Shown: positions 29,715 through 35,899, numbered from the stretch's first letter. The stretch: DNA of 64,000 nucleotides from Escherichia coli (GCF_050920415.1 NZ_CP169309.1), one strand, 5' to 3'. The notes: generated by a model from the letters alone, not told the origin. Numbers and translations are program-made.

Positions 29715-30959
<1,245 letters not shown>

Positions 30960-30989: not shown

Positions 30990-32312
30990 TTATTCGCTGA
31001 TACGGCGATAGACAGTTGGTGTGCTTTCCGGTGCTTTATCGGCAAGTTTAATTGCCGCTTTCACCGCTTTCGCCGCTTCCTGCCAGCTGTTTTCGTCTTT
31101 CGCGTGGATAACCGCCAGCGGACGCTGACCGTCTACCTGGTCGCCCAGACGCGCCATATCAGTAAAGCCGACGCTGTAATCGATGGTGTCAGATGCCTGA
31201 CGGCGACCGCCGCCCATTGCAACCACTGCCATTCCCAGCGCGCGGGTATCCATTTCACTGACAAAACCTTCGGTATCAGCATAGACTGCTTTCGTCAGCA
31301 TCGCTGTCGGCAGATACTTCGCGTAGTTCTCAACGAAGTCGGTCGGGCCTTTTTGTGCCGCTACCATACGACCAAAGACTTCTGCCGCTTTACCGTTGTC
31401 CAGTACCGCCTGCAATTTCGCGCGCGCTTCGGCGTCATCTTTCGCCAGTTTGCCGGAGATCAACATCTCCACGCACAGTGCCATCGTGACATCAAACAGA
31501 CGCGGGTTACGATACTCACCAGTCAGGAACTGCACCGCTTCACGAACTTCAACCGCGTTACCTGCACTGGAGGCCAGCACCTGATTCATATCGGTGAGCA
31601 GCGCGGTGGTGCGCACGCCAGCGCCGTTAGCCACGCCAACAATCGCTTCGGCAAGGGCTTCAGAGAGTTCGTAGGTCGGCATAAACGCGCCGCTACCGAC
31701 TTTCACGTCCATCACCAGCGCGTCCAGACCTTCCGCCAGTTTCTTCGCCAGGATCGAGGCAGTGATCAGCGGGATGGAATCCACGGTTGCGGTAATATCG
31801 CGGGTCGCATAGAAACGTTTATCCGCCGGAGCCAGTGAACTGGTCTGGCCAATAATCGCCACGCCAACATCTTTAATAATTTCGCGGAAACGGTTGTCAT
31901 CTGGGAAGATGTCGAAGCCAGGGATGGATTCCAGTTTGTCGAGCGTACCGCCAGTATGGCCGAGGCCGCGACCGGAGATCATCGGAATATAGCCGCCGCA
32001 GGCTGCGACCATTGGCCCCAACATCAGCGAAGTCACATCGCCGACGCCGCCGGTCGAGTGTTTATCAACAATCGGGCCATTCAGATGCAGGCTTTTCCAG
32101 TCGAGAACGGTTCCTGAATCTCGCATCGCCATCGTCAGCGAGACACGCTCCGGCATTGTCATATCGTGGAAGAAAATGGTCATCGCGAGGGCGGCAATCT
32201 GCCCTTCGGAGATAGTGTTGTCGCGAATACCGTTGATAAAGAAGCGAATTTCTTCATCGCTCAGCGCATGACCATCACGTTTTTTACGAATAATTTCTTG
32301 TGCGAGAAACAA
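30990..32312 (-). CDS. deoA: thymidine phosphorylase
   Basis: 440-aa ORF matching K-12 DeoA. Confidence 0.95.
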
Positions 32313-32475: not shown

Positions 32476-33255
32476 TTAGTAGCTGCTGGCGCTCTTACCG
32501 TCGCCGTGGCCCAGCGCTTTCAGCAGGCTTGCCAGCAGGCTGGAAGCACCAAAGCGGTAGTGACGCGCATCAGCCCAGTCAGCACCGAACAGTTCATCTG
32601 CGATGGCAAGATATTTCTGCGCATCTTCCGCAGTACGCACGCCGCCCGCCGGTTTGAAACCAACGGTTTTTTCTACGCCCATGTCGCGAATCACTTCCAT
32701 CATGATGCGCGCGCTTTCCGGCGTCGCATTCACAGCCACTTTACCGGTAGAGGTTTTGATGAAATCAGCACCCGCTTTGATGGATATTTCAGACGCTTTG
32801 CGGATCAGCGCTTCGTCTTTCAGTTCGCCGGTTTCGATGATCACTTTCAGCAGTACATTCGCTGCCGCGCAAGCCTCTTTACAGGCTTTCACCAGGTCAA
32901 AACCTACCTGCTCGTTACCCGCCATCAGCGCACGGTACGGGAACACCACATCAACTTCATCGGCACCGTAGGCGATTGCCGCGCGGGTTTCGGCCAGCGC
33001 GATTTCGATATCGTCGTTACCGTGTGGGAAGTTGGTTACCGTAGCGATACGGATTTCCGGGGTACCCTGCTCTTTCAGCGTTTTGCGAGCAATTGGGATA
33101 AAGCGAGGATAGATACAGATAGCGGCGGTATTGCCGACCGGAGTTTTGGCCTGATGACACAGGGCGATCACTTTCTCGTCGGTGTCGTCGTCATTCAGGG
33201 TGGTCAGGTCCATCAATTTCAGTGCACGCAGGCTGCTTGCTTTCAGATCAGTCAT
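32476..33255 (-). CDS. deoC: deoxyribose-phosphate aldolase
   Basis: ORF 32476-33279 contains the K-12 DeoC sequence starting [29 protein letters not shown] at the ATG at 33255 (259 aa). Confidence 0.95.
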
Positions 33256-33299
33256 TTCATTCTCCTGGCTTGTCGCCAATAAAATTCACCTTGCGAGTT

Positions 33300-33315
33300 T
33301 GTTAGTATTCTAACA
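33300..33315 (-). promoter_or_regulatory. DeoR operator O2 at the proximal deo promoter (deoP2)
   Basis: 16-bp near-palindrome tgttagtattctaaca (TGTTAGAATACTAACA on the deoC strand) 45 bp upstream of the deoC ATG. Confidence 0.7.
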
Positions 33316-33513
33316 TCGACTCCGCAACACACTTCGATATACATCACAATTAAGGAAATCTACTTACAAAATTGCATTACTGTAATGCGATCTGGTTCAA
33401 ATAATTCACTTTCAAATGAATGCGTCAGTGGTGGCAAACGCATCAGGATCAAAGTGAACATCACGAAACTTCTTACAATGGCGCATCACCTTCGGCATAA
33501 AAAGGAACAGAAG

Positions 33514-35064
33514 ATGCCCACTTCTCATGAAAATGCACTGCAACAACGTTGCCAGCAAATTGTCACCAGCTCAGTACTTAGCCCGGAGCAGAAGCGCCAT
33601 TTTCTGGCGCTGGAAGCAGAAAACAATCTGCCTTACCCACAGCTTCCTGCCGAAGCCCGCCGCGCGCTGGATGAAGGTGTAATCTGCGATATGTTTGAAG
33701 GTCATGCGCCGTATAAACCGCGCTATGTCTTACCCGATTACGCCCGTTTTTTGGCCAACGGTTCCGAATGGCTGGAGCTGGAAGGCGCAAAAGATCTTGA
33801 TGACGCACTCTCTCTGCTGACCATTCTTTACCACCACGTTCCTTCGGTCACATCGATGCCGGTCTACCTGGGGCAACTGGATGCGTTGTTGCAACCGTAT
33901 GTTAGAATTCTAACACAAGACGAGATCGATATTCGAATAAAACGTTTCTGGCGTTACCTCGACAGAACCCTGCCAGACGCCTTTATGCACGCCAATATTG
34001 GCCCATCTGATTCACCCATTACCCGTGCGATTTTACGCGCAGACGCAGAGCTGAAGCAGGTTTCACCGAACCTGACTTTTATCTACGATCCTGAAATCAC
34101 CCCTGATGACCTGCTGCTGGAAGTGGCGAAAAACATCTGTGAATGTAGCAAACCGCACATCGCCAACGGTCCCGTGCATGATAAAATTTTCACAAAAGGG
34201 AGCTACGGGATTGTGAGCTGTTACAACTCACTGCCGTTAGCGGGTGGTGGCAGTACGCTGGTACGCCTCAACCTGAAAGCCATTGCCGAGCGCAGTGAAT
34301 CGCTGGATGACTTCTTTACGCGCACTCTACCGCACTACTGCCAGCAGCAAATCGCCATCATCGATGCGCGGTGTGAATTCCTCTATCAACAATCACACTT
34401 CTTTGAGAATAGCTTCCTGGTGAAAGAAGGGCTGATTAACCCTGAACGTTTTGTGCCAATGTTTGGCATGTATGGGCTGGCGGAAGCGGTTAACTTGCTG
34501 TGTGAAAAAGAAGGAATTGCCGCACGTTACGGTAAAGAAGCCGCCGCAAATGAAGTGGGTTATCGCATTAGCGCGCAACTGGCGGAGTTTGTCGCCAATA
34601 CCCCCGTGAAATATGGCTGGCAAAAACGCGCCATGTTACACGCACAGTCGGGGATAAGTTCCGATATCGGCACCACGCCGGGCGCGCGTTTGCCGTATGG
34701 CGATGAGCCAGATCCGATCACCCATCTGCAAACTGTCGCCCCGCATCATGCTTATTATTATTCCGGCATCAGCGACATTTTGACGCTCGACGAAACCATC
34801 AAACGTAATCCGCAGGCGCTGGTACAGCTTTGCCTCGGTGCCTTTAAAGCCGGAATGCGTGAATTTACCGCCAATGTCAGCGGTAACGATCTGGTTCGCG
34901 TTACCGGTTATATGGTGCGTTTGTCGGATTTAGAAAAATATCGTGCCGAAGGTTCACGTACCAATACCACCTGGCTGGGAGAAGAAGCCGCACGCAACAC
35001 TCGTATTCTGGAACGCCAGCCGCGCGTTATAAGCCATGAACAGCAGATGCGCTTTAGTCAGTAA
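33514..35064 (+). CDS. yjjI: glycyl-radical-enzyme-like protein YjjI (DUF3029)
   Basis: ORF 33385-35064 contains the K-12 YjjI sequence starting [17 protein letters not shown] at the ATG at 33514 (516 aa). Confidence 0.93.
33900..33915 (-). promoter_or_regulatory. DeoR operator O1 at the distal deo promoter (deoP1), located inside the yjjI coding sequence
   Basis: Perfect 16-bp palindrome TGTTAGAATTCTAACA exactly 600 bp upstream of O2, matching the roughly 600-bp O1-O2 spacing I recall for the deo operon. Confidence 0.7.
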
Positions 35065-35899
35065 GATTATCCCCTTCTCCTGCGTTGACGGGCCAGGCAG
35101 TCGTCTGGCTCTGTTTTTACAGGGCTGCAATCTGCGCTGCAAAAACTGTCACAATCCGTGGACGATGGGGCGCTGTAATGATTGCGGTAAGTGCGTGCCA
35201 CAGTGTCCGCATCAGGCGTTGCAGATTATTAACAGCAAAGTAGTGTGGAACGCAGCCGTCTGCGAGCAGTGTGATACCTGTCTGAAGATGTGTCCGCAAC
35301 ATGCCACGCCGATGGCGCAATCCATGAGCGTGGATGAGGTGCTTAGACATATCCGCAAAGCGGTGCTGTTTATCGAAGGGATAACGGTAAGCGGCGGCGA
35401 AGCCACGACCCAGCTGCCGTTTGTGGTGGCGCTGTTTACTGCCATCAAAAACGATCCGCAACTGTGCCATCTCACCTGTCTGGTGGACAGTAACGGCATG
35501 TTGAGCGAAACCGGCTGGGAAAAATTACTCCCAGTGTGCGACGGCGCGATGCTCGACCTCAAAGCGTGGGGTGGCGCGTGCCATCAACAGCTAACCGGAC
35601 GCGATAATCAGCAGATCAAGCGCAGCATTAGTCTGCTTGCCGAGCGCGGCAAACTGGCAGAACTGCGTTTGCTGGTAATCCCAGGCCACGTGGATTATTT
35701 GCAGCATATCGATGAGCTGGCGGCGTTTATCAAGGGTCTTGGCGATGTTCCGGTACGCCTGAACGCGTTTCATGCTCACGGCGTGTATGGCGAGGCGCAA
35801 AGCTGGGCGAGCGCCACGCCGGAAGACGTTGAGCAATTGGCTGATGCGTTACGGGAGCACGGGGTGAGCCGATTAATATTTCCGGCGCTGTATTTGTGA
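35036..35899 (+). CDS. yjjW: glycyl-radical enzyme activating protein (radical SAM) YjjW
   Basis: 287-aa ORF with CxxxCxxC radical-SAM and ferredoxin-like Cys clusters, matching K-12 YjjW; overlaps the yjjI 3' end. Confidence 0.93.

Follow-up and report, generated by a model that had tools for sequence, protein, structure and literature searches.

Repressor-binding sites within reading frames are known from the lac and gal systems, where the auxiliary operators lac O2 and gal OI lie in the coding sequences of lacZ and galE, respectively, and act by looping. The deo region of Escherichia coli is among the systems on which the concept of long-range repression through DNA loops was founded, and its architecture is in itself not news. 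The promoters deoP1 and deoP2 are 599 bp apart and are both under repression by DeoR, which holds them together through a single DNA loop (PMC3334521). The repressor forms a hexamer or octamer, with natural looping over distances of up to about 900 bp (PMC4217526), and its binding to DNA and its release by deoxyribose-5-phosphate have been described (PMC5326754, PMC3258297). The title of a 1986 paper by Valentin-Hansen et al., cited in PMC5326754, speaks of three operators. In addition, one of the promoters of deoCABD, which drives the whole operon, was located by Choe et al. 'in an upstream gene, yjjI' (PMC6389913). Since that paper places a deoCABD promoter in yjjI, the core finding is already in print; the arrangement is known, and the comparative quantification given here is the only addition to it, as an illustration rather than a discovery.

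The window analysed here is a stretch of 64,000 nucleotides (64 kb) of E. coli DNA, running in the orientation opposite to that of the K-12 map. Among complete genomes, strain MFDS1022581 matches the 2 kb surrounding the sites at 100% identity, and nearly all of the 5,423 others do so at 95-99%. Among the approximately 5,425 places in E. coli that match the region, 3 are on plasmids and not on chromosomes, and a few genomes carry two copies. The locus is the same as the deo control region of K-12, with identical operators and the same deoC-yjjI-yjjW order. The region is read here, with a probability of about 0.93, as the classical three-operator control of deoCABD, in which DeoR would bridge the operators O1, O2 and OE and cover the -10 elements of both promoters as long as deoxyribose-5-phosphate does not release it.

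Genes, operators and promoters of the deoC-yjjI region

The features of the locus are listed in Table 1. The intergenic region between deoC and the divergent yjjI is 258 bp long (33256-33513). The product of yjjI, described in the initial annotation as glycyl-radical-enzyme-like, matches Pfam family PF11230 (E=2e-220, YjjI domain over residues 22-504) and carries the motif RVTGY at residue 462, which is a glycyl-radical motif of the C-terminal RVxG[FWY] type. Together with the adjoining gene for a radical-SAM activase, these properties are those of a glycyl radical enzyme of the YjjI family, as had been proposed. The start of yjjW lies 29 nt before the yjjI stop, and the two genes overlap at 35036-35064. 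An Rfam search of positions 33000-35200 gave no match.

Table 1. Coordinates of genes, operators and other elements in the window, with sequences read as given or in the deo direction where indicated
Feature	Position	Strand	Description
deoB	29715-30938		downstream of deoA
deoA	30990-32312		downstream of deoC
deoC CDS	32476-33255	-	first gene of deoCABD; ATG at 33255; 259 aa, begins MTDLKASSL; ORF list and RefSeq
DeoR operator O2	33300-33315	-	TGTTAGTATTCTAACA; TGTTAGAATACTAACA in deo direction; deoP2 -10 TAGAAT at 33307-33312
CRP site of deoP2	33333-33348	-	TGTGATGTATATCGAA
yjjI ribosome-binding region	33497-33510	+	AAAAAGGAACAGAAG in window, AAAAGGAAAAGAAG in K-12; from alignment
yjjI CDS	33514-35064	+	516 aa; 'YjjI family glycine radical enzyme' (RefSeq)
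DeoR operator O1	33900-33915	-	perfect 16-bp palindrome TGTTAGAATTCTAACA; deoP1 extended -10 TGTTAGAAT, hexamer TAGAAT at 33907-33912
Conserved stretch	33937-33951	-	CCAGAAACGTTTTAT in deo direction; about -37 to -51 from the putative deoP1 start
Candidate operator OE	34179-34194	not assigned	TGATAAAATTTTCACA; yjjI codons 222-227
yjjW	35036-35899	+	radical-SAM activase; Radical_SAM and Fer4 family matches

The initial annotation had placed a proximal DeoR operator 45 bp upstream of deoC and a perfectly palindromic second operator exactly 600 bp further upstream, about 130 codons into the divergent yjjI, and all of these positions were recovered. From the deoC ATG it is 45 bp to the start of O2, with 44 bp in between, the distance from O2 to O1 in the window is 600 bp from start to start, and O1 covers the third base of yjjI codon 129 through codon 134 (Y-V-R-I-L-T) of the plus-strand gene. 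With up to three mismatches allowed, O1 and O2 are the sole matches to the palindrome in the 64-kb window; over 100 shuffled sequences, the mean was 0.21 matches, and no shuffle contained two or more. The DeoR-binding palindromes TGTTAGAA-TACTAACA (O2) and TGTTAGAA-TTCTAACA (O1) are quoted from work of 1986-1989 in PMC5326754, and both 16-mers of the window match them exactly. Judged by sequence, O1 and O2 are the classical DeoR sites of this operon.

The extended -10 element TGTTAGAAT is present within both O1 and O2, which fits the published placement of the operators over the promoters. A simple consensus promoter scan called neither deoP1 nor deoP2 because their -35 regions are weak, and the scan is therefore no test of them. 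The start of deoP1 would be expected at about 33900 on the minus strand. The CRP site TGTGATGTATATCGAA of deoP2 is listed as a CRP ChIP-seq site between yjjI and deoC in ETEC, where a CRP ChIP-seq peak was also found inside yjjI, with the predicted site CGTACCGTCGGTCACA (PMC4287617). The latter site maps to about 33837-33852 of the window, approximately 55 bp downstream of the putative deoP1 start, and the window differs from K-12 and ETEC at two bases within it.

In K-12 MG1655, the distance between O1 and O2 is 599 bp, equal to the published figure, against 600 bp in the window. Over a compared stretch of 1,061 bp, the window and K-12 are 98% identical, and the ribosome-binding region of yjjI differs by a 1-bp insertion and two substitutions (Table 1); the inserted base, immediately 5' of the yjjI ATG, accounts for the distance of 600 instead of 599 bp. 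When complete E. coli genomes were searched with a 41-nt probe, the window-type allele was found in 399 of 5,426 (about 7%) and the K-12 type in 5,022. The 600-bp distance is thus a minority allele of the 599-bp map and does not contradict it. The published deoP1/deoP2 map, proposed in the initial annotation as a check, therefore agrees with the operator sequences and departs from the proposed distance by 1 bp; another published distance had been named there as a refutation, but strain polymorphism explains the 1-bp departure. The initial annotation needs three corrections: the standard spacing is 599 bp, yjjI holds a third site, and the promoter in yjjI had been published before. The window-type allele might affect the initiation of yjjI translation.

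Across species, nearly every O1-O2 distance from 596 to 604 bp was observed (597 bp was missing), outlying values ranged from 589 to 626 bp, and in Edwardsiella there was only a weak O2 candidate with 5 mismatches, 675 bp away. A functional role of helical phasing or of a spacing of exactly 599 or 600 bp was rejected, since the O1-O2 distance varies among species, as expected for loops this long. Since the reading frame that holds both O1 and OE is free of indels, their distance is constant, at 279 bp.

Association of the operators with deoC and predicted control by DeoR

For the comparison across species, 80 yjjI loci were taken from a species-level genome collection and 10 were added via protein look-ups. 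In all 73 analysable yjjI genes with a divergent deoC neighbour (including those of Escherichia, Salmonella, Citrobacter, Enterobacter, Lelliottia, Kosakonia, Kluyvera, Hafnia and Edwardsiella), O1 was always located at yjjI nucleotide +386, with no mismatch in 54 genes, one mismatch in 15 and two mismatches in 4. The 12 yjjI genes not beside deoC (four from Proteus, two from Vibrio, and one each from Providencia, Moellerella, a relative, Gilliamella, Orbus and a Vibrionaceae-like source) had 6-9 mismatches at the O1 position, and no operator-like site was found anywhere in these 12 loci. The association of the site with an adjoining deoC is strict. O2 is less well conserved than O1 across species, with 1-5 mismatches. 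Within E. coli, 4,493 of 5,422 genomes share one 30-mer around O1, and the sampled variants (two around O1 and one around OE) differ only in the flanks.

The third site is 279 bp past O1, at a distance of 879 bp from O2, and from its position we take it to be the published OE. It fits the consensus at 12 of 16 bases, which is at chance level by sequence alone; in the 64-kb window, 4 sites with up to four mismatches were found against 1.8 expected, so OE is not callable from its own sequence. Among the aligned yjjI genes, it is the most conserved 16-nt window (rank 1 of 1,533) and the second for silent sites, and in the 12 genes without a deoC neighbour, 8-12 of the 16 bases differ at this position. 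The site fits the third operator of the three-operator model, in which an additional upstream site strengthens repression.

Under the three-operator reading, multimeric DeoR is predicted to bind O2, O1 and OE, and DNA loops of about 600, 279 and 879 bp would bridge the operators; the published looping range of up to 900 bp accommodates the longest of these, between OE and O2. The looped complex would shut both deoP1 and deoP2 because each promoter operator carries its -10 hexamer TAGAAT, and deoxyribose-5-phosphate would free the operators of DeoR. The same bases would then act as operators and as yjjI codons 129-134 and 222-227, with the promoter on the antisense strand. deoP1/O1 and OE sit in the yjjI frame because so little intergenic DNA separates the two genes. 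The binding of DeoR, the looping, the inducer and the promoter activity within yjjI are taken from the literature.

The intragenic operators could also control yjjI-yjjW, which would extend the three-operator reading rather than replace it, and this is considered possible but rather doubtful. DeoR at O1 and OE would then block or trap the RNA polymerase transcribing yjjI, antisense transcripts from deoP1 would interfere with yjjI, and FNR-driven transcription of yjjI would disturb deoP1 and DeoR. The predicted geometry is consistent with such coupling, since transcripts from deoP1 would run antisense through the initial 386 nt of yjjI and on across its promoter region, and the yjjI promoter would lie inside the O1-O2 loop, with polymerase having to pass DeoR at O1 and OE. 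Coupling is also favoured by the FNR activation of yjjI, to which an FNR ChIP peak was assigned with 'TSS not known' (PMC3688515), and by the anaerobic induction of yjjI in Yersinia (PMC3792023). A search for an FNR box of yjjI in the intergenic region (33256-33513) gave only weak matches, with 2-3 mismatches and overlapping the CRP sites of deoP2. On the other side, neither yjjI expression data in deoR mutants nor a paper naming both DeoR and yjjI was found in the literature search, and the short intergenic region alone could account for the arrangement.

The gene neighbourhoods of yjjI-yjjW bear on the same question, and three nucleoside-linked arrangements were observed. In Enterobacteriaceae, Hafnia and Edwardsiella, the genes diverge from deoCABD. 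The two further arrangements are in other lineages. In Moellerella (locus L083, 1647-4554) and a relative (L086, 1681-4557), yjjI-yjjW is preceded at about 70-80 bp by a same-strand gene for a nucleoside transporter of the NupC family. Genes for thymidine phosphorylase and 5'-nucleotidase precede yjjI-yjjW on the same strand in Gilliamella (L084, 1-5389) and in Orbus (L093, 1-6389), where a cytidine deaminase gene is present in addition. This placement beside nucleoside-catabolism genes suggests a shared pathway and counts in favour of coupling, whereas three Vibrionaceae loci and a Providencia locus have no nucleoside link. Because yjjI-yjjW adjoins nucleoside genes in three arrangements, a role of YjjI in nucleoside or deoxyribose metabolism is suggested, and the repeated linkage is a lead to the function of this glycyl radical enzyme. 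It is unlikely, on present evidence, that the nesting is a device coupling FNR-activated yjjI-yjjW to DeoR and deoxyribose-5-phosphate, with YjjI as an enzyme of anaerobic nucleoside or deoxyribose catabolism.

Silent-site constraint and protein change in yjjI

Silent-site variation was determined as third-position entropy summed over five-codon windows in 69 non-redundant deoC-adjacent genes with a mean pairwise nucleotide identity of 78%. The lowest value in the gene was that of O1 (codons 130-134), with a summed entropy of 0.30 (rank 1 of 512 windows), followed by the OE window with 0.71 (rank 2 of 512), codons 142-146 with 0.93 and the yjjI/yjjW overlap window with 1.14. The overlap, with the fourth strongest constraint, provides the method with a positive control from within the gene. 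The next window, which is the first without an overlapping function to explain it, had a value of 2.46, and the median over windows of six consecutive third positions was 7.08. The edges of the constraint at O1 are sharp, with 1.74 at Pro128 and 1.56 at Asp136. The excess of silent-site constraint is confined to the site and is lost where the second function is absent, as in dual-use DNA. The synonymous-site comparison suggested in the initial annotation thus gave the lowest variation in yjjI across O1, and its statement that the overlap of regulatory and coding DNA constrains both is supported by this rank and by the presence of the site only where deoC adjoins.

The codons of O1 are GTT-AGA-ATT-CTA-ACA, and GTT, ATT, CTA and ACA are unchanged in 67-69 of the 69 genes. 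AGA131 is one of two AGA among the 33 Arg codons of yjjI, and CTA133 is one of two CTA among its 56 Leu codons; the operator forces these rare codons in yjjI. Nearly all variation of O1 is in codons 130-131, the exceptions being one Tyr129Phe and, in Edwardsiella, a silent change of codon 133 from CTA to TTA.

The constraint also extends to the protein. In Enterobacteriaceae, the encoded sequence is Y-V-(R/K)-I-L-T, with Arg (AGA) or Lys (AAA) at codon 131 (33904-33906). In Hafnia and Edwardsiella, it is Y-V-G-I-L-T, and the operator TGTTGGAA... has one mismatch. Y-V-G-x-L-T is present in 11 of 11 non-adjacent genes that keep the motif, and Gly131 is found in 12 of 12 yjjI genes without a deoC neighbour in addition to Hafnia and Edwardsiella. 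A change of GGA to AGA at codon 131 completes the O1 palindrome. The regulatory site has apparently overridden a conserved residue, with Gly131 replaced by Arg or Lys.

The third most constrained five-codon window of yjjI (codons 142-146) corresponds to the stretch CCAGAAACGTTTTAT upstream of deoP1. Its rare codons are kept, CGA141 in 57 and ATA142 in 66 of the 69 genes. The stretch may be an UP-like upstream element of deoP1 or the site of some regulator; we only infer such a role, since the invariant residues K-R-F-W explain part of the conservation.

It is very improbable that codons 129-134 and 222-227 are conserved for the sake of yjjI itself, through a rare-codon pause or an mRNA hairpin, with the likeness to a DeoR site being secondary. 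Rare codons do cluster here (AGA131, CTA133, CGA141 and ATA142), and the 16-mer is able to form an RNA hairpin, but the motif is absent from all 12 non-adjacent genes, the protein of which is 61-72% identical to the queries used. Moreover, the sequence equals that of the intergenic O2 and of the published DeoR palindrome, and silent variation is near zero only across the 16-bp operator and normal in the adjoining codons. That the palindrome, which contains an EcoRI site, arose by chance, or that yjjI is mis-annotated and there is no coding overlap, is scarcely credible, given 2 observed palindromes against the shuffled mean of 0.21 and given that, although an in-frame extension of the ORF from 33385 (559 aa) makes the choice of start non-trivial, yjjI codons 1-128 vary as coding DNA (entropy 0.37/0.28/1.23 at codon positions 1/2/3 in 69 orthologues), the aligned start is ATG in 63 of 69 species, an in-frame stop occurs within 43 codons upstream of this ATG in 58 of 69 species, and the Pfam domain begins at residue 22. 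The longer ORF was rejected as yjjI on the basis of the coding signature, the conserved ATG and the upstream in-frame stops.

Comparison with known systems

The locus amounts to a natural experiment on dual-use DNA, in which two 16-bp sites are the most silent-constrained stretches of a 1.5-kb gene. Recoding or deleting yjjI would be expected to disturb deo regulation, and an analysis that takes silent-site conservation as a neutral baseline would misjudge this gene.

Compared with the deo control region of K-12, the locus differs in the O1-O2 distance, by the single base pair described above. The likeness to lac O2 and gal OI consists in a repressor site that lies in a reading frame and loops to a promoter-proximal operator. 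However, lac O2 and gal OI lie in the first gene of the regulated operon itself, on the sense strand, whereas in the deo system, a full promoter and two operators are antisense in an unrelated, divergent gene. In addition, the intragenic O1 is the best-conserved, perfect site and not a weak auxiliary one. Overlapping genes are similar in that silent positions are frozen by a second function, and the overlap with yjjW shows the same signature within yjjI. Unlike in overlapping genes, the second function in the deo region is protein-DNA binding and not a reading frame, and a residue, Gly131, also appears to have been replaced.
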